DNA of 40,421 nt from a bacterium. Its GTDB lineage: Bacteria; Patescibacteriota; Minisyncoccia; UBA6257; GWB1-50-10. Both the position numbers and the translations under genes were made by a program. Location of the stretch: NCBI GenBank assembly GCA_021814545.1, contig JAKAID010000003.1, forward strand, positions 1 through 40,421, read 5' to 3'. Shown here in pieces: positions 17,522-40,421 of the stretch; within the stretch, counting starts at the first letter, position 1, and each line of letters starts with the position of its first letter. The notes under the pieces were generated by a model. It was not told where the DNA came from. It did no database searches and saw only the letters and a list, made by a program, of their open reading frames with translations.

Positions 17522-18502
17522 TTAAAACTGTTTGGTGAATCGGAGGTCGCCCGAGTAAAAAAGGCGGATGTCGGGGATGCCATACTTTATCATTGCGAGG
17601 CGGTCGAGCCCCATGCCGAACGCGAACCCCTGCACATTGCGGAAATCATACTTCACTGCATCGAATACGTTGCGATGCACCATGCCCGCCCCCATCACTT
17701 CAAGCCACCTCCCGCCGGGCAGTCGGATATCCACCTCAACGCCAGGCTCAACGAATGGGAAATAACTCGGACGGAAGCGAAATTCCACCTCGCTGCCGAA
17801 GAAGCGCTTAAAGAACGCCTCGATGACGAACTTGAAGTTCGCAAGCGTAACGTCCGGCCCCACCACGAGCCCCTCCACCTGATAAAAGTTTATCTCGTGC
17901 GAAGCATCGGTCGCTTCGTAGCGGAAGGTGCGTCCCGGCACGATGATCTGGAAGGGGGCCTTATGTGCTTCCATGTAGCGGACCTGCATGGGCGAGGTGT
18001 GCGTGCGCATAAGCATTCGCTTTGCGGAGACCTCGTTTTTCACCCAGAATGTGTCCCACATGTCGCGTGCAGGATGCCAGCCAGGTATATTCAGCGCATC
18101 AAAATTATAGCGCTCTTCTTCAAGCTCCGGCCCCTCCACCACCGAGAAGTTAAGAGAGGAGAATATCTCGCGGATCTGCGTATCTATCTTTGTGAGCGGG
18201 TGCGCATGACCGAGCGCGAGTTTCTTCCCCGGCTTCGTTACATCAAAGCGCGTACGCGGACCGCGCGCGAACGCAGCGAGCTTCTTTTCAATGAGTGCCT
18301 CGAGTTCCTGCCGCAATTCATTTGCCGCCGTGCCAAGCGTCCGCTTCTCCTCGGGCGTCATGTCCTTTAGCCCGCGAAGGATGGCGGTCAATTCCCCTTC
18401 CTTCCTCCCCAAGTATTTCACGCGGGCCGCCTCCACTTCCTGCGTATTGTTCGCGCGCTCGATATCCTGGATTGCGCTTGCCTTCAGTGCCGTAAGGTCC
18501 AT
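17522..18502 (-). CDS. pheS: Phenylalanine--tRNA ligase alpha subunit
   Basis: Class II motifs FRYEATDASHEINFYQVEG and GMGLDRLAM are present. The start is set at the ATG at 18502 (MDLTALKAS...). The ORF-track extension to 18667 reads through a tRNA gene on the opposite strand. Confidence 0.92.
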   Translation of the reverse strand: MDLTALKASAIQDIERANNTQEVEAARVKYLGRKEGELTAILRGLKDMTPEEKRTLGTAANELRQELEALIEKKLAAFARGPRTRFDVTKPGKKLALGHAHPLTKIDTQIREIFSSLNFSVVEGPELEEERYNFDALNIPGWHPARDMWDTFWVKNEVSAKRMLMRTHTSPMQVRYMEAHKAPFQIIVPGRTFRYEATDASHEINFYQVEGLVVGPDVTLANFKFVIEAFFKRFFGSEVEFRFRPSYFPFVEPGVEVDIRLPGGRWLEVMGAGMVHRNVFDAVKYDFRNVQGFAFGMGLDRLAMIKYGIPDIRLFYSGDLRFTKQF

Positions 18503-18514
18503 ATCAGTTTTTTC

Positions 18515-18520
18515 ATTATA
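18515..18520 (-). promoter_or_regulatory. -10 box TATAAT 12 nt upstream of the pheS ATG (18502)
   Basis: The minus strand reads GCGGGTATAATGAAAAAACTGAT-ATG. Confidence 0.35.
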
Positions 18521-18582
18521 CCCGCATTGCCACACAAAATAAACCACCTTGAAATCTGCGCCATTTGCTGGTATGGTTTTCC

Positions 18583-18659
18583 TGCGGGGGAGAGCGGTCC
18601 GGTTGCTCGTCAGGCTCATAACCTGAAGGCCATGGGTTCGAATCCCATCCCCGCAACCA
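18583..18659 (+). tRNA. tRNA-Met (anticodon CAT), initiator-like, with encoded CCA
   Basis: Manual cloverleaf: TGCGGGG GA GAGC GGTCCGGTT GCTC G TCAGG CTCATAA CCTGA AGGCC ATGGG TTCGAAT CCCAT CCCCGCA A CCA. It has A11:U24 (a bacterial initiator hallmark), a weak U1:A72 pair, and two of the three initiator G:C pairs at the base of the anticodon stem. Confidence 0.85.
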
Positions 18660-18667
18660 GTTTTCAT

Positions 18668-18740
18668 GGCGGAGTAGCTCAGTGGTTAGAGCGAGCGCTT
18701 CATAAGCGTTAGGTCGTGGGTTCGATCCCCACCTCCGCCA
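18668..18740 (+). tRNA. tRNA with anticodon CAT (elongator Met or lysidine-dependent Ile2), no encoded CCA
   Basis: Manual cloverleaf: GGCGGAG TA GCTC AGTGGTTA GAGC G AGCGC TTCATAA GCGTT AGGTC GTGGG TTCGATC CCCAC CTCCGCC A. The G1:C72 and C11:G24 pairs are elongator-type. Confidence 0.88.
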
Positions 18741-18743
18741 CCC

Positions 18744-19190
18744 ATGACCGAGGCACAGCAACAAAAAATTATACGCCTCGCGCGTTCCCTCGTCGGAGCT
18801 CCTTATGTTTATGGCGCGGAAGCGAATGCGCCGCACACGTTCGACTGCTCCTCCTTTACGCAATACGTATTCAAAGGCGCAGGCATCGAATTGCCGCGCA
18901 GCAGCATTTTGCAGGCCGCGGACGGGCACGGAACCGAACTTGCCGTGAGTAACGACCCCTCGCACTACGCGCCAGGGGACCTCCTTTTTATGCGCGGTGT
19001 GCGCGGCTTCTACCGCGACAGCCTTTTCGAAGGTCGTGAGGTTTCTATCGGCCATGTCGGTATCTACCTCGGCACGGAAGAGATAGCGCACGCCCAGGCG
19101 CACCGCGAACCGAATGGTGTCGTTATCCAAAACCTCTCTGAACTTACGCGTGACCCGCACTACGCAATTATTTTTGCCAAGCGGTTCTGA
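18744..19190 (+). CDS. NlpC/P60 (C40) family peptidase
   Basis: The catalytic-Cys context FDCSSFTQYVF and a downstream IGHVGIYLG (His) are present. Length is 148 aa and no signal peptide is evident. Confidence 0.8.
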   Translation: MTEAQQQKIIRLARSLVGAPYVYGAEANAPHTFDCSSFTQYVFKGAGIELPRSSILQAADGHGTELAVSNDPSHYAPGDLLFMRGVRGFYRDSLFEGREVSIGHVGIYLGTEEIAHAQAHREPNGVVIQNLSELTRDPHYAIIFAKRF

Positions 19191-35999: not shown

Positions 36000-36464
36000 T
36001 CAAGCCTGCAGTGTCTCCTTCAACTTAGGTAACCCGTGACTCTCTCTCAATTTGTCTATATTTTTCTTGTCCTCGATCGGGCGCAGCATCAGTTTCCCAT
36101 CTTTCCTGTACCATTGCGTTCCAAATCTTTGTGGCCTTCCCCTATTCACCAAAACTCTGTCGGTCAGATGCGCCTCGTCCGCTAAATCGAAATTGCAATT
36201 CTTGAGACACTCTTCTTGAAGCGATACGTCGAAATCTTGATGCTGAACAACAAGCCACAGTGCGTGCAACGCGTCAGCTCCTACCACTGCCTCAGTCGGA
36301 TACCCATGAACGTCAATTATCCGACGCAACCGTTCGCCGTGCACTCCGTCAATCGCATATATAAGATAGTTGATCAGTTCCTTCCCTGGCTTTGCCGCAA
36401 GACGAAGCTCCTGATCAATCTTCATCATTTCAATTAGTTGCTCAGCCAATTGCGGATTGCGCAT
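36000..36464 (-). CDS. Hypothetical 154-aa protein (resembles DUF6624-type proteins)
   Basis: The pattern IDQELR...VVQHQD...LTDRVLVNRGRPQRFGTQW matches my recollection of the DUF6624 family and is not verified. It has its own TATAAT at 36484-36479, 14 nt from the ATG. Confidence 0.6.
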   Translation of the reverse strand: MRNPQLAEQLIEMMKIDQELRLAAKPGKELINYLIYAIDGVHGERLRRIIDVHGYPTEAVVGADALHALWLVVQHQDFDVSLQEECLKNCNFDLADEAHLTDRVLVNRGRPQRFGTQWYRKDGKLMLRPIEDKKNIDKLRESHGLPKLKETLQA

Positions 36465-36485
36465 AATTTATTGTTCAAATTATAG

Positions 36486-36517
36486 TTAAAAAAGAGGGAG
36501 GGGTAAACCCCTCCCCC
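36486..36517 (-). terminator. Rho-independent terminator after the ATP-grasp gene
   Basis: GGGAGGGG (36496-36503) pairs with CCCCTCCC (36508-36515). A T-run follows on the minus strand. Confidence 0.75.
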
Positions 36518-36522
36518 AAGCG

Positions 36523-37488
36523 TCAGGAAACCAGCAATCTCGCAATCGCCTGGGCAATTTTGAGATGGGTCCTTACCTGGACAAAGTACCACTGCCCACT
36601 CGGATTAACCTCGAGGAAAACGTATTCATGCTTCGGGGTAACGATCATGTCGATACACCCAAATCGTAGGCCGACGGCATCCATAAAGGAATGGATTCTC
36701 TCCTGGATGTCCCTTGGCAAATCTGTCGGCTCCATGCGCACCTCGAAATCGTTCAACTTCGGCTTCCTTCTCCAATCAAGTGCGGTTTCCTCATCGCGTT
36801 GCGAGAGGATTTTGACCGGGAACAGCTCGTTTCCAACCACCGTAATTCTGAGCTCGTATTCCTTTTCGACACGGGCTTGAAAAATCGATGGGGACCGCCT
36901 TACTGATTCGACCTGCTTCATGTGCTCCAGAGTCACGCGGTTTGTATAAACAACTTTATTCAAAACCGGACTCATGGCAAAAAGCTTCACAACGACATCT
37001 CCTCCATTGTCGCCGTAAAACTTCCTGACCTTGTCAGGATCCGATGTAATGAGCGTGGCCGGCATTGCCAGACCAATCCTTCGCGCGACGCTCATTTGGT
37101 ATGCCTTATTCTCCGCCATCATCACCTTCCATGGATCATTAATCCATTTTTTGTGACGAAAAACGGACCATAACACCCTTCTCATTTCCTCGAACTGGCG
37201 ATGGATGAACTGACGATATTCCGCAGGCTCGTAGTTCAATAACTCTTTCGGCAAGTGGGGATGTAAATAGTAGATTGCCGAGAAATCCTTGAGATTGTAC
37301 GAAACTCCGTCAATGGTGGCGATGAACAACATTCCTTCGTCGTTCGATGCCACTGAAAGATGATCGCTTTCGAGACACTTGTCCTGTTTGAATAAGACGG
37401 TCTCTTCCCCAAATTCGCGGAGGGCATCACGCACCTCAGCAAATGCGGCCACCTCATATACGCCCGAGTTTCCCACGGTCAAAATCAT
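36523..37488 (-). CDS. MvdC/MvdD-like ATP-grasp ligase (candidate graspetide/RiPP maturase)
   Basis: 321 aa starting at the ATG at 37488 (MILTVGNSG...), which is preceded by GGAGG (37498-37494). The C-terminal motifs ALDWRR and FGCIDMIVTPKHEYVFLEVNPSGQWYF are typical of RimK/MvdD-type ATP-grasp enzymes. The ORF-track N-terminal extension to 37716 runs through a terminator hairpin and the precursor ORF. Confidence 0.8.
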   Translation of the reverse strand: MILTVGNSGVYEVAAFAEVRDALREFGEETVLFKQDKCLESDHLSVASNDEGMLFIATIDGVSYNLKDFSAIYYLHPHLPKELLNYEPAEYRQFIHRQFEEMRRVLWSVFRHKKWINDPWKVMMAENKAYQMSVARRIGLAMPATLITSDPDKVRKFYGDNGGDVVVKLFAMSPVLNKVVYTNRVTLEHMKQVESVRRSPSIFQARVEKEYELRITVVGNELFPVKILSQRDEETALDWRRKPKLNDFEVRMEPTDLPRDIQERIHSFMDAVGLRFGCIDMIVTPKHEYVFLEVNPSGQWYFVQVRTHLKIAQAIARLLVS

Positions 37489-37503
37489 GACATCCTCCTT
37501 TTC

Positions 37504-37530
37504 AAAAAAGGAGGGGCACAATGCCCCTCC
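37504..37530 (-). terminator. Intrinsic terminator/attenuator between the precursor peptide and ATP-grasp genes
   Basis: On the minus strand: GGAGGGGCA (37530-37522), loop TTG, TGCCCCTCC (37518-37510), then T6 (37509-37504). Confidence 0.7.
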
Positions 37531-37562
37531 TGAGATTGGGACGAAATTGCCCCGTGACGAGC

Positions 37563-37661
37563 CTACGTGTTGTCCGACCCGTCGATGTCGCTGTACGTCC
37601 CCGTCGTTGTGGGGTAAACCGCCCCCAGACGATCCTCGAAGAACAGGAAGATGAACGGCAC
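37563..37661 (-). CDS. Candidate graspetide precursor peptide, 32 aa: MPFIFLFFEDRLGAVYPTTTGTYSDIDGSDNT
   Basis: AAGGAGGTGA lies at 37676-37667, with 8 nt between GGAGG and the GTG at 37661; the stop is TAG at 37565-37563. The peptide has a hydrophobic/acidic N-terminal half and a Thr/Ser/Asp-rich C-terminal half. It lies 74 nt upstream of the ATP-grasp start on the same strand. Confidence 0.65.
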   Translation of the reverse strand: MPFIFLFFEDRLGAVYPTTTGTYSDIDGSDNT

Positions 37662-37704
37662 CGCAATCACCTCCTTTCTGCGGGATTGTGAATTTGCTGA
37701 ACAT

Positions 37705-37733
37705 ATTTTGCGCCAACTATTGGGCTCTGTCAA
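37705..37733 (-). promoter_or_regulatory. Sigma70-like promoter for the precursor/ATP-grasp operon: TTGACA, 17-nt spacer, CAAAAT
   Basis: On the minus strand the -35 TTGACA (37733-37728) is a perfect consensus. The -10 CAAAAT is at 37710-37705. Confidence 0.5.
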
Positions 37734-37744
37734 TATTCTTCGGT

Positions 37745-37801
37745 ACGGCAATGCGCACGCATACGGCGCGATGGTCGCCCGCGCATAACAATTCCCCGCC
37801 C
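37745..37801 (+). repeat. Degenerate duplicate of the comF 3' end plus downstream flank
   Basis: 37772-37801 TGGTCGCCCGCGCATAACAATTCCCCGCCC compares with 35943-35971 TGGTCGCGCGGGCATAACAATCCCGCCCC. The copy reads ...AMVARA-stop in frame versus ComF ...GIVVARA-stop. Weaker similarity extends about 25 nt further upstream. Confidence 0.7.
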
Positions 37802-37820
37802 AGCAGCGAGGATTTGTACG

Positions 37821-38525
37821 TTACTTTTTCCAACTATTTTTTATCGTCGCGTAGTGCGCAAGCAATGAATCGAAATTTTTGTGTGCTCGCCACTCATCCA
37901 CAAGCAACGCGCGCAATTTTTGATGCTCTGGGTAGCCCCTATCAGGGCGTGAGAACATCCCCGGCATCTCTTCGTTCAATAAAAACGTTGTTGCCTCCTG
38001 GATATCCCAAAATTCTTTTGCGCTTAGCTTCAACACCTCTTTGCACTGCCTCCAGTATTTTCTAATGAATGCAAAATGTAACAGCTCGTGCGCGACGACC
38101 GCGTCCGCGCCGGTGTCACCCAGCTTCGCCATAAACCATCCTTCCTTGATATTGAACGGACAACTTCCGAGGTTGGTAAGATATGCAGTAAATGTTTCTC
38201 CCGCGGAGAATGCCCCGGGGAAAATGTGCTCAATTTTTTCAAAATAGGCATTATTCACCATCATCCATTTTTCGGAAAATAATTTTATTCTTTGCTCAAT
38301 AAGCTCTCGCACGTTCTCATGTTCGCCTTTCAAATGTGCGGCGATTTTTGTACGCTGCTCATCAGCGGCCCCCAAACCTCTCATTTCTGCCACAAATTCG
38401 GCGGGAAGCCTTCCGAACATCCAAGAAACGTCTTCCCGCGGATCGTGGTGCGAGGGCTCATTAATCACCCGCAATGCATTCCAAATATCTTTTTCAAGGT
38501 CGTATGCAAAGTGAACACGAGGCAT
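37821..38525 (-). CDS. Hypothetical protein with an HExxH motif (putative zinc metallopeptidase)
   Basis: VAHELLHFAF contains HELLH. The start is set at the ATG at 38525 (MPRVHF...), because the ORF-track TTG at 38564 lies inside the upstream terminator hairpin. I cannot name a family. Confidence 0.6.
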   Translation of the reverse strand: MPRVHFAYDLEKDIWNALRVINEPSHHDPREDVSWMFGRLPAEFVAEMRGLGAADEQRTKIAAHLKGEHENVRELIEQRIKLFSEKWMMVNNAYFEKIEHIFPGAFSAGETFTAYLTNLGSCPFNIKEGWFMAKLGDTGADAVVAHELLHFAFIRKYWRQCKEVLKLSAKEFWDIQEATTFLLNEEMPGMFSRPDRGYPEHQKLRALLVDEWRAHKNFDSLLAHYATIKNSWKK

Positions 38526-38595: not shown

Positions 38596-40421
38596 TTATC
38601 GCTCTTTAATGTCCCTTATCTTCTTCGGCTGTGCGCCGGTGCTTCCGAGCACCTGCTGGCGGTAGGAGCATGCGGTGCCGCCATCCGTTACCGTAAGCGT
38701 TACCTTGTCGGTCGAAGAGGCGGTCGCGGGGTCGAATATCGCGGTCGCGGTCGGACCATTCGTGCCCGTCGAGGTCGCGTTCGGGAATACCCACTGCCAG
38801 AGCCAACCGGTCGAAGGATATGCGCCACCCGAGCGGTCGAGCGTGCTCGTGCCCGAGAAGTTGATGGGCCATGCAGTCCTCCCCGGCGTCGGGCTCCACG
38901 TGAATTGCACGAGCGGGTAGTAATGCGTCGGCGTCGTCATCGGCGCGCTCTTTACTTCGGGCGACCAGCCCGTGCCATCGAATGCGGAAACGCCCACCGT
39001 GAACGCCGTGTTCTTCGCGAGAATGCTCAAGGGCGCAAAGAGGTTGTAGCGGCCATAGGTCGTGCTCGTCGTTGCAATATACGGCAACCCGGAGCTTGCG
39101 TTGTAGAACGTTATCTTCGCCTGCTGCTGCGCATTGCTTCCGGAATAATTCCAGGTAATCGCGTAGTAGGGGTCGTCATCGCACCAGGTGCCGCCCGTGC
39201 GGTCGGGGTTTATCATCGAACCCTCTGAAACGGATACGTTCGACACGACCGGCGCCCCGCCCATCGTCGCACCGAACGAAAGCCACCCGGTGATGTTGCT
39301 CCCCCATGCCTGCCCGCCCAATGCGCCCGTCGCCGGGTCATAGGTCACGCCGTAATTCACCGCCGATTGTGCGTAAGCACGCGCGATGCGGTCAGCTTCT
39401 GCGAACGTCGCGGCGGTTTTTGCTTTGATACCGCTCCAGCTCGTAAAGTCTCCCTGCGAAATGAATGTGCCCCAAATGCGATGTGCGGAGAATGGCTTCC
39501 ACTCCGCGCTCGCTGTGCGCGCATTATCTGCCACGCCCGCGAGCGTTGCGGGGGCGCTATTCAAGCTCACCCATCCGTCCCACCCGGTACTTGAAGCCGC
39601 AATGAACTTTGCCCAGCCGAGAAGCCTGTTGGGCGTTACCGAAGTATCAAGCTGCGCCACGCAGTGCCCGTCCGGACAACCCGCAAGGTCTGCCTTGTTG
39701 AAGGAAAGCCATACATAACCGTGGCCACCCGTAAGCAACCCATACGCGACGCCATGGAGCTCGTTCGTGTCGTCTGCGAACACGTTGTACTTCACGTTGC
39801 TGCAGTTCGTGCCATCCGTTTCGCAGCTCACGCTCACCCAGCCAATTCCAGTCGTGCCCACACTTCCCCATGCAGTGCCATTCAGCCTCGCCTTTACGTT
39901 AAGGTTCAGCGGCGCTGCTTCAGAAACCGTCTGTGCCGACGGCGTGCGAATGCGGAACTGATATTTTTTTGCGATAGAGAGCCCGGGGAGCGACGCGGTC
40001 GAAGATACGTTCGTAGACGCAGACTTTACGACATCCTGCACGGTCGTGAACGTGGGGCTTAAGGGGTCGGGCGACTGCTGGACCTGATACTGCGTGTTGG
40101 GGTGCACATTGGACCACGAGAGCACTACGTCCGCCGTGCTCGGGCCCGCGTAACTCGCCCTCGCCACAAGCCCCATCGTTTCTTGCTTGTAGGAAAACGC
40201 GTCGGGGAGAATGATGGCGGGGACTTCTGCCGAAAAATCGGAGCAGCCGACGTTGCCGCTCGTGTTCGCACACGCGCGCACCTTGTAGGTATACGAGGTG
40301 TTGTAGGCGACTGCCGTATCATTTATCGAATTCGCAGAGGTCGAGGTGAGGAGCGCATACGCGCCGGCTCCTGTTCTTTTCCATATCTCGACATATGTTG
40401 CCCCGGGTGCGGGGTTCCAGG
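38596..40421 (-). CDS. Partial CDS (N-terminus beyond the window end): large secreted surface protein with FN3-like and G-W-[IVL]-S-[FVL] repeat regions
   Basis: The frame stays open from 40419 to the stop at 38596. The stretch upstream of the ORF-track GTG reads WNPAPGATYVEIWKRTGAGAYALLTSTSANSINDTAVAYNTSYTYKVRACAN, a pattern like an FN3 C-terminal strand. Repeats GIGWVSVSCE, GYVWLSFN, GWDGWVSLNS and GWLSFG are present. Confidence 0.85.
   Translation of the reverse strand, partial: WNPAPGATYVEIWKRTGAGAYALLTSTSANSINDTAVAYNTSYTYKVRACANTSGNVGCSDFSAEVPAIILPDAFSYKQETMGLVARASYAGPSTADVVLSWSNVHPNTQYQVQQSPDPLSPTFTTVQDVVKSASTNVSSTASLPGLSIAKKYQFRIRTPSAQTVSEAAPLNLNVKARLNGTAWGSVGTTGIGWVSVSCETDGTNCSNVKYNVFADDTNELHGVAYGLLTGGHGYVWLSFNKADLAGCPDGHCVAQLDTSVTPNRLLGWAKFIAASSTGWDGWVSLNSAPATLAGVADNARTASAEWKPFSAHRIWGTFISQGDFTSWSGIKAKTAATFAEADRIARAYAQSAVNYGVTYDPATGALGGQAWGSNITGWLSFGATMGGAPVVSNVSVSEGSMINPDRTGGTWCDDDPYYAITWNYSGSNAQQQAKITFYNASSGLPYIATTSTTYGRYNLFAPLSILAKNTAFTVGVSAFDGTGWSPEVKSAPMTTPTHYYPLVQFTWSPTPGRTAWPINFSGTSTLDRSGGAYPSTGWLWQWVFPNATSTGTNGPTATAIFDPATASSTDKVTLTVTDGGTACSYRQQVLGSTGAQPKKIRDIKER

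Follow-up and report, generated by a model that had tools for sequence, protein, structure and literature searches.

An unannotated 32-residue peptide gene beside an ATP-grasp ligase as a candidate graspetide precursor in a three-gene cassette of Patescibacteria

The 40,421-nucleotide (nt) contig JAKAID010000003.1 (assembly GCA_021814545.1), whose full length is called the window here, derives from a bacterium of the lineage GWB1-50-10 within the Patescibacteriota. On its minus strand it carries a gene for an ATP-grasp ligase and, directly upstream, an unannotated small open reading frame (ORF) of 32 codons. This raises the question whether the small ORF is a real gene and whether its product might be modified by the ligase, as is the case for graspetides, which are RiPPs (peptides synthesized ribosomally and then modified post-translationally) with side-chain esters. 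Our analysis makes it highly probable that the small ORF encodes a graspetide precursor in a three-gene cassette formed by the precursor, the ATP-grasp macrocyclase and a DUF6624 protein. The original prediction of a candidate precursor is thereby supported by the family of the ligase, the conserved linkage of the small ORF, the leader signature and the donor/acceptor pattern of the core. The cassette genes and the predicted signals of the precursor gene are as follows.

37563..37661, minus strand: precursor peptide gene, 32 amino acids (aa) plus TAG, MPFIFLFFEDRLGAVYPTTTGTYSDIDGSDNT, reading GTG CCG TTC ... ACG TAG
37667..37677, minus strand: Shine-Dalgarno (SD) sequence AAAGGAGGTGA, read from the sequence, 5 nt 5' of the GTG start
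37705..37733, minus strand: sigma-70-like promoter candidate TTGACA-17 nt-CAAAAT from a consensus scan, 10/12 matches, a consensus match only
36523..37488, minus strand: predicted ATP-grasp graspetide macrocyclase, 321 aa, ATG at 37488, with its own SD sequence AAGGAGG at 37500..37494
36000..36464, minus strand: DUF6624 protein, 154 aa (Pfam PF20329, 2e-16), the third conserved cassette gene

Direct reading of the minus strand from 37661 to 37563 yielded the translation with a GTG start that had been proposed before. The final 17 residues, described earlier as rich in Thr, Ser and Asp and free of Lys and Glu, indeed contain five Thr, two Ser and three Asp, with no Lys and no Glu. For comparison, 7 loci from genomes and 80 from metagenomes were gathered. 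In L097 (NCBI GCA_021812485.1), the closest relative, with a ligase identity of 78%, the sequence ATG CCG TTC ATC aligns with GTG CCG TTC ATC of the window, and the DNA similarity between the two loci starts at this ATG/GTG and extends to the common TAG. A strong SD sequence is also located right before M-[P/A]-F-I-L in L009, L024, L027/L037, L028 and L033. The position of the stop codon is conserved across the family, two residues past D30 in nearly all members. Among 29 distinct peptide sequences, the mean pairwise nucleotide differences at codon positions 1, 2 and 3 were 0.39, 0.31 and 0.67, respectively, and 43% of the differing codons were synonymous in the peptide frame; with the frame shifted, the two values were 9% and 5%. 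As a consequence of this in-frame excess of synonymous changes, the conservation cannot be borrowed from the N-terminal ligase extension that overlaps the peptide gene in another frame. These substitution patterns indicate that the small ORF is a genuine gene and subject to purifying selection. A profile built from eight family members gave a single match in the six frames of the window, the peptide itself (E = 1e-19), and no additional precursor copies.

The gene had been described as hidden, and both the ORF list and public annotations bear this out. The ORF list of the window shows the peptide solely within a longer ORF of 62 aa (37563..37751), which begins at a TTG further upstream, and lists the ATP-grasp ORF in a 397-aa version (36523..37716) that overlaps the peptide in another frame. 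An identical cassette is present on contigs of five public assemblies, one of which is the metagenome-assembled genome NCBI GCA_027460785.1. On all five contigs the called genes encode a 234-aa protein, a 393-aa 'ligase' running over the peptide, and the DUF6624 protein, and the peptide was left uncalled. It is likewise uncalled in the public annotation of L097, which has instead an 85-aa ORF antisense to the peptide gene (L097 1521..1778, minus strand), probably a spurious gene call. The precursor gene was thus missed in every examined public gene-call set carrying the cassette, its place being taken by the antisense ORF in L097 and otherwise by a ligase with a falsely extended N-terminus. 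With the 32-aa peptide as query, phmmer retrieved four true family members from 1.84 billion representative proteins, all of them long-leader forms of 47-60 aa; this count is a lower bound owing to the limited sensitivity of a single 32-aa query.

Which kind of ATP-grasp enzyme is encoded next to the peptide? A comparison of the ligase with MvdC/MvdD-type and RimK/GshB-type profiles, the check proposed along with the original prediction, came out in favour of the RiPP maturases. Of the NCBIfam RiPP models, MvdC (3.5e-63), the SAV_5884-type (4.5e-58), MvdD (8.3e-58) and grasp-with-spasm (3.5e-32) matched the protein, compared to 8.8e-11 for RimK, 4.5e-9 for LysX and 2e-3 for GshB among the non-RiPP models. 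A RimK- or GshB-type identity was rejected, with 41.7 bits for RimK_fam (cut-off 143.4) and 16.8 bits for GshB (cut-off 272); the Pfam RimK model reached 18.8 bits and stayed below its cut-off of 21. Because the scores for all equivalogs lie under their cut-offs as well (213.7 versus 425 bits for MvdC and 196 versus 475 bits for MvdD), the ligase is best classified as a separate subfamily of the RiPP maturase superfamily. All six proteins of the PDB matched by sequence are graspetide macrocyclases, namely AMdnB (3e-43), MdnB (4e-41), MdnC (3e-37), CdnC (2e-33), 9BOU and PsnB (3.5e-6). Residues D280, E293 and N295 of the ligase are invariant in 33 relatives, and the block ...ID...FLE(V/I)NP.G..., which we take to be the Mg/ATP motif of ATP-grasp enzymes, aligns identically with AMdnB, MdnB and MdnC. 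At E < 1e-10 the ligase has 717 relatives, and every named top match belongs to the Patescibacteria, also known as Candidate Phyla Radiation (CPR).

A further check proposed earlier was whether a small ORF is conserved beside orthologs of the ligase, and this is the case. Loci were considered here if the ligase was intact and at least 45% identical and if the flank to be searched was present. In a profile search, a peptide homolog was found in 38 of 38 such loci, corresponding to the 29 distinct peptides. In four other close loci the peptide was absent, and there the ligase is N-terminally truncated (L038, L041, L042) or frameshifted (L044). The order peptide-ligase-DUF6624 is kept in all but two loci: L014 (3277..5244) has the order ligase, DUF6624, peptide, and L028 (3..1433) the order ligase, peptide, DUF6624. 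The gap between the peptide gene and the ligase gene amounts to 74 nt in the window and usually to 65-115 nt. A longer distance of about 600 nt between precursor and ligase was noticed in loci from Giovannonibacteria (L016 2803..3501). Clustering of the flanking ORFs revealed no other conserved neighbours such as a transporter, peptidase or methyltransferase; the ligase and DUF6624 genes alone recur. Judged from these loci, the peptide travels with this clade of ligases.

The leader of the window peptide comprises approximately residues 1-14, PFIFLFFEDRLGA, and the predicted core approximately residues 18-30 (window 37610..37572). Within the 29 distinct peptides, the leader positions are conserved as follows: P2 in 25 (Ala in the others), F3, I4 and L5 in 28 each (Phe instead of L5 in the window), F7 in 24, L8 in 23, E9 in 22, G13 in 28 and A14 in 26. 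The resemblance of the N-terminus to graspetide leader motifs, pointed out earlier, extends to the family, since PFIF/PFIL is a conserved motif there and agrees with the signature Phhx(1,2)h from the literature. The leader had also been described as unusually short. In L008, L032 and L035 there are 3 to 6 extra N-terminal residues, and further family members have N-terminal extensions of 10-28 residues. Owing to the alignment of the GTG with the ATG of L097 and the strong SD sequences before M-[P/A]-F-I-L in several other loci, the minimal leader of about 14-16 residues can be regarded as a recurrent state of the family and not as an artefact.

In the core, each of the positions 18, 19 and 20 carries a nucleophilic residue in all 29 peptides (Thr in 27, Ser in one and Lys in one at position 18; Thr in 27 and Ser in two at position 19; Ser in 16, Thr in 11 and Cys in two at position 20). 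G21, D27 and D30 are invariant (29/29), T22 is present in 24/29 and D25 in 20/29 sequences. Of the up to three macrolactones initially suggested, two are consistent with the whole family, as D27 and D30 are invariant, and the third is not a family-wide feature, as D25 is found in 20 of the 29 peptides. By analogy with known graspetides, we infer that two ester rings are constant in the family, with donors among residues 18-20 and D27 and D30 as acceptors. A third ring is possible in the window peptide, because it has all three Asp and four Thr. A ring between T22 and D25 was rejected as a family feature, since inspection of the 29 sequences showed that the losses of T22 and D25 are uncorrelated. 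The single Lys at position 18 occurs in L022 (803..898; VKTSGTYGDIDSAD), where a lactam could replace the ester.

Taken together, a simple mechanism can be proposed. The short leader, with its N-terminal PFIFLFFE...GA, would dock on the ligase, on the model of MdnB/MdnC, PsnB and further macrocyclases that have been characterised. With ATP, the ligase would turn the side-chain carboxylates of D27, D30 and possibly D25 into acyl-phosphates, which would then be attacked by the hydroxyls of T18, T19, T20 and possibly T22. The outcome would be two macrolactones, or three in the window peptide, most likely in the form of a nested hairpin of rings around Gly21, an arrangement that is probable by analogy with plesiocin and thuringinin. 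An RNA hairpin 3' of the peptide gene (see below) would probably raise the level of the peptide transcript over that of the enzyme transcript.

The third member of the cassette, and an obligatory partner in it, is the DUF6624 protein. Among 30 distinct loci, its gene adjoins the ligase gene in 29, and the remaining one, L013, stops short of where the gene would begin. The residues Q18, H75, D102, R103, Q112, G115 and T116 are invariant, and D17, R21, D39, Q74, D77 and D79 nearly so. According to the alignment, the DUF6624 proteins of the CPR begin straight at a conserved helix, and no N-terminal hydrophobic segment was seen when the alignment was inspected, without a signal-peptide predictor having been run. 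The AlphaFold2 model (predicted local distance difference test score, pLDDT, 94.5; predicted template modelling score, pTM, 0.87) shows a helical bundle with a small beta-hairpin. A solved relative was found neither with a 33-sequence profile against the PDB nor with Foldseek (best E = 0.14, template modelling score, TM, < 0.5). The protein belongs to the same family as the 'cluster 23' of Makarova and co-workers, the alignment of which carries identical motifs. DUF6624 also co-occurs with the graspetide groups 18, 20, 23 and 42, and in groups 20 and 23 together with peptidase-containing ABC transporters (Carter et al. 2026, PMC13097080), which argues weakly against DUF6624 as the sole leader peptidase. 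Our preferred guess is that it is an enzyme or chaperone acting on the peptide. A more far-reaching and rather doubtful possibility is that DUF6624 represents a new RiPP enzyme or obligatory partner, e.g., a leader-removing hydrolase or a core-tailoring enzyme, and that the cassette is the smallest self-sufficient graspetide system known. If so, the cassette with its leader of about 15 residues would be a tractable model both for minimal leader recognition and for the roles of RiPPs in episymbiotic, genome-reduced bacteria. As a separate observation, L046 (985..2035) has two tandem DUF6624 genes 3' of a ligase gene resembling that of group 42.

The intergenic regions of the cassette contain additional elements that are relevant for its expression:

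37503..37531, minus strand: GC-rich 10-bp hairpin followed by a T-run (AGGAGGGGCATTGTGCCCCTCCT TTTTTT), from a terminator scan, between the peptide and ligase genes
36494..36517, minus strand: second terminator-like hairpin, from a consensus scan, between the ligase and DUF6624 genes
36479..36507, minus strand: promoter-like site TTTACC-17-TATAAT, from a consensus scan, overlapping the second hairpin

The predicted fold of the region between the peptide and ligase genes has a free energy of -30.8 kcal/mol in the window (z = -3.4). A strong hairpin (z <= -2.5 compared to shuffled controls) is present at the same position in 24 of 28 loci, and in 21 of 28 it is terminator-like by a loose, custom criterion. 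Its position is conserved and its sequence is not, and in L097 compensatory changes preserve it. Searches with Rfam for known RNA elements in the region gave just sub-threshold matches, to the two terminator hairpins. The hairpin between the peptide and ligase genes is likely a partial terminator or a transcript-stabilising element. Hairpins of this kind 3' of RiPP precursor genes commonly serve to keep precursor transcript in excess over enzyme transcript. With a hairpin and a promoter-like site also located between the ligase and DUF6624 genes, DUF6624 may be transcribed partly on its own.

Several points weigh against a graspetide precursor. Ester formation, ring number and connectivity are predictions for every member of the peptide family, the third ring is uncertain, with D25 and T22 not conserved family-wide, and the leader is far shorter than in characterised graspetides. 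The ligase, which scores under the curated cut-off of every NCBIfam equivalog, may follow different substrate rules. DUF6624 might be needed for a modification outside the ester model, and the maturation and export of the peptide are unexplained without a conserved peptidase or transporter. Some of these points would suit a real ligase partner of different chemistry, in which, for instance, the key modification is introduced or reshaped by DUF6624, or an amino acid is attached to Asp side chains by the ligase in a RimK-like manner. DUF6624 shows the same tight linkage as the ligase (29/30 loci), its invariant His, Asp, Arg and Gln are reminiscent of an enzyme and its fold is unmatched, and the ligase misses all equivalog cut-offs. 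However, macrocyclases make up all close relatives of the ligase by structure and by sequence, the scores of RimK-type models are poorer by about 50 orders of magnitude, and invariant Asp combined with a nucleophile strictly kept at positions 18-20 is what typifies pairs of donors and acceptors. We therefore consider another chemistry improbable.

Even less probable is that the true product is the 62-aa protein starting at the upstream TTG (37751), whose leader would be of the usual length. No stop codon interrupts the frame as far back as this TTG and several family members are extended N-terminally by 10-28 aa, but it is the GTG and not the TTG that is preceded by a strong SD sequence, and the promoter-like site upstream of the peptide gene falls inside the 62-aa ORF. 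Moreover, the DNA similarity to L097 begins only at the GTG/ATG, leaving the extension unconserved, and minimal-leader forms with an ATG directly before PFIL recur elsewhere. The least credible alternative, to which we give hardly any weight, is a regulatory upstream ORF, i.e., a leader-peptide attenuator that steers read-through of the hairpin into the ligase gene, with the peptide not being a substrate. A terminator-like hairpin is indeed located directly 3' of the ORF in the window and most relatives, as expected for such a layout. Attenuator peptides are, however, constrained mainly at a few regulatory codons, whereas in the peptide studied here conservation spans the full sequence, with the ligases 45-60% divergent. 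Its invariant Asp and always-nucleophilic positions fit graspetide cores and its leader fits the graspetide signature, and two loci, L014 and L028, have the peptide gene downstream of the ligase gene, which it cannot attenuate from there.

The 234-aa protein encoded next to the cassette deserves separate consideration, as it contains an HExxH motif:

37821..38525, minus strand: HExxH protein, 234 aa, candidate zincin-like metallopeptidase, adjoining the cassette

The residues H146, E147, H150 and E177, the latter a Glu 27 residues downstream, are invariant in this protein. It had no match in Pfam, NCBIfam, PHROG or PADLOC. Its AlphaFold2 model (pLDDT 92) gave no significant match with Foldseek, the weak top ones being enriched for M1/M4 gluzincins. 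The gene is found beside the cassette in two of 30 distinct loci, the window and L007, and its homologs P0138 and P0142 occur in unrelated contexts. The family looks like an undescribed family of putative metallopeptidases. A function as dedicated leader peptidase is not supported in view of the occurrence in 2/30 loci, the homologs elsewhere and the insignificant fold search, and the protein is regarded as a possible metallopeptidase, perhaps co-opted here, and probably not as a dedicated component of the cassette. In L095 (3492..5711), the gene for P0142 is located directly 3' of one for a radical SAM protein of 467 aa; another radical SAM gene and a gene for a UbiE-type methyltransferase lie nearby, and this locus may be another peptide-modification locus.

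The region 36001..38500, which comprises the DUF6624, ligase, peptide and HExxH genes, has the lowest GC content of the window (0.48-0.49), whereas every other 1.5-kb segment of the stretch shows values of 0.53-0.60. Clustering of flanking ORFs showed that the flanks of the cassette differ among loci. The low-GC island and the varied flanks suggest that the cassette was acquired horizontally as a module. A defence-system or phage origin was rejected, with no PADLOC matches and, as sole PHROG match, a generic RimK-like ATP-grasp family hit by the ligase. The rest of the window resembles ordinary chromosome, with genes for CysRS, DnaB, an Na/H exchanger, the CCA-adding enzyme, RecG, the alpha and beta subunits of PheRS, GatA, LigA, a type IV pilus cluster (PilB, PilT, PilC, PilD, PilM), ComF and seven tRNAs. 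The relatives of the cassette genes and this CPR-compatible context point indirectly to a CPR host. Two other features of the window were noted. Directly upstream of the island, a 561-aa ORF without Pfam match (38596..40281, minus strand) appeared by eye to be rich in Thr, Ser, Gly and Ala. The longest PheS ORF (17522..18667, minus strand) is overlapped at its 5' end by two adjacent tRNA-Met genes (18583..18744, plus strand), so that the true PheS start is probably located further downstream.

What does this locus add? It represents a compact three-gene graspetide module that occurs in varied contexts in genomes of Patescibacteria. New are the breadth and the conservation pattern of the family, which go far beyond three near-identical published sequences, the recurrent minimal leader, the positionally conserved hairpin and the DUF6624 protein without a solved fold relative. 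The cassette is an economical system for testing the role of DUF6624 and the lower limit of graspetide leader length, and for graspetide specialists it is a useful, tractable target rather than a surprise.

Among known systems, the microviridin system (MdnA with MdnB/MdnC, group 1) contains the experimentally characterised ligases closest to ours by sequence, and its chemistry is the ATP-dependent cyclisation through side chains that is proposed here. The microviridin leader motif PFFARFL is short and hydrophobic with a Pro-Phe start, comparable to that of the window peptide. Microviridins are made by two ligases, which form first esters and then an amide, they have Lys and Glu in the core and a much longer leader, and their clusters usually include a GNAT acetyltransferase and an ABC transporter. 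In contrast, the window has a single ligase, a core without Lys or Glu, none of those accessory genes, and DUF6624 as partner. The best model for the topology of the proposed rings is provided by plesiocin and thuringinin (groups 2 and 3), for which Lee, Kim and co-workers reportedly found a single ligase, ester-only links and nested hairpin-like rings, with Thr donors N-terminal to the acidic acceptors. They differ from the window system in their core motifs (TTxxxxEE; TxxTxxTxxxExxDxD), in their often repeated cores and in the absence of DUF6624, and their ligases are far more distant (PsnB 3.5e-6).

The original prediction had regarded a RiPP in a CPR genome as notable in itself, a view that does not hold any more, since publications of 2022 and 2026 already described graspetide clusters of the CPR, a precursor homolog and the DUF6624 partner. 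Literature searches retrieved no experimental characterisation of any CPR graspetide. CPR graspetide clusters, the leader signature Phhx(1,2)h and the cluster 23 partner, as well as zincin peptidases in some of the loci, were reported by Makarova et al. 2022 (PMC8939145). Their precursor cluster 1865 consists of three sequences from Ca. Giovannonibacteria, which differ solely in that one of them is extended by 3 residues at the N-terminus, and conserved core positions were not definable from these sequences. The text of that study places the Giovannonibacteria precursors under Branch 2, and in its Table S1 the three ligases are listed without a branch label, beside rows of Branch 1. The exact cluster 1865 peptide is encoded in L016, L018 and L020, the ligase of which is 57% identical to that of the window, and our family profile matched this peptide (L016) with 5.5e-15. 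Its sequence ...LPFILGFLEYREGAMAPTTCGIITDIDAYDAA is clearly homologous to MPFIFLFFEDRLGAVYPTTTGTYSDIDGSDNT of the window, both being predicted peptides, and in the window, too, a DUF6624 protein of the cluster 23 family is encoded next to the ligase. Differences are the N-terminal extension of about 20 residues in the cluster 1865 peptides, compared to the minimal leader in the window, and the distance of their gene from the ligase gene of about 600 nt, compared to 74 nt for the unannotated gene of the window. For many CPR ligase loci no precursor was found by Makarova et al., perhaps because of missed small ORFs (PMC8939145). The present results bear out this suggestion in that, at least in this clade, such precursors exist as very short ORFs.

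A closely related architecture is that of group 42 of Carter et al. 2026 (PMC13097080), which comprises 22 biosynthetic gene clusters, 82% of them with DUF6624 and without any other frequent partner. Its representative from Ca. Komeilibacteria has the sequence ...PLILDRL...GFTTHGTPNDPDSGGTD. Shared with the window system are the occurrence in CPR bacteria, the combination of a precursor, a single ligase and DUF6624, and the core TTxGTxxDxD, and the P-L-I-L leader motif of group 42 is comparable to that of the window family. The spacer between leader motif and core is about 15 residues longer in group 42, and the tail reads DSGGxD instead of DxxD in the window family. A peptide of the group 42 type is present in L047, the ligase of which is 42% identical to that of the window. 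The window gene is a new, unannotated member of a predicted, uncharacterised kind of graspetide and does not define a new category of systems, and its family is probably a compact sister or subgroup of group 42.

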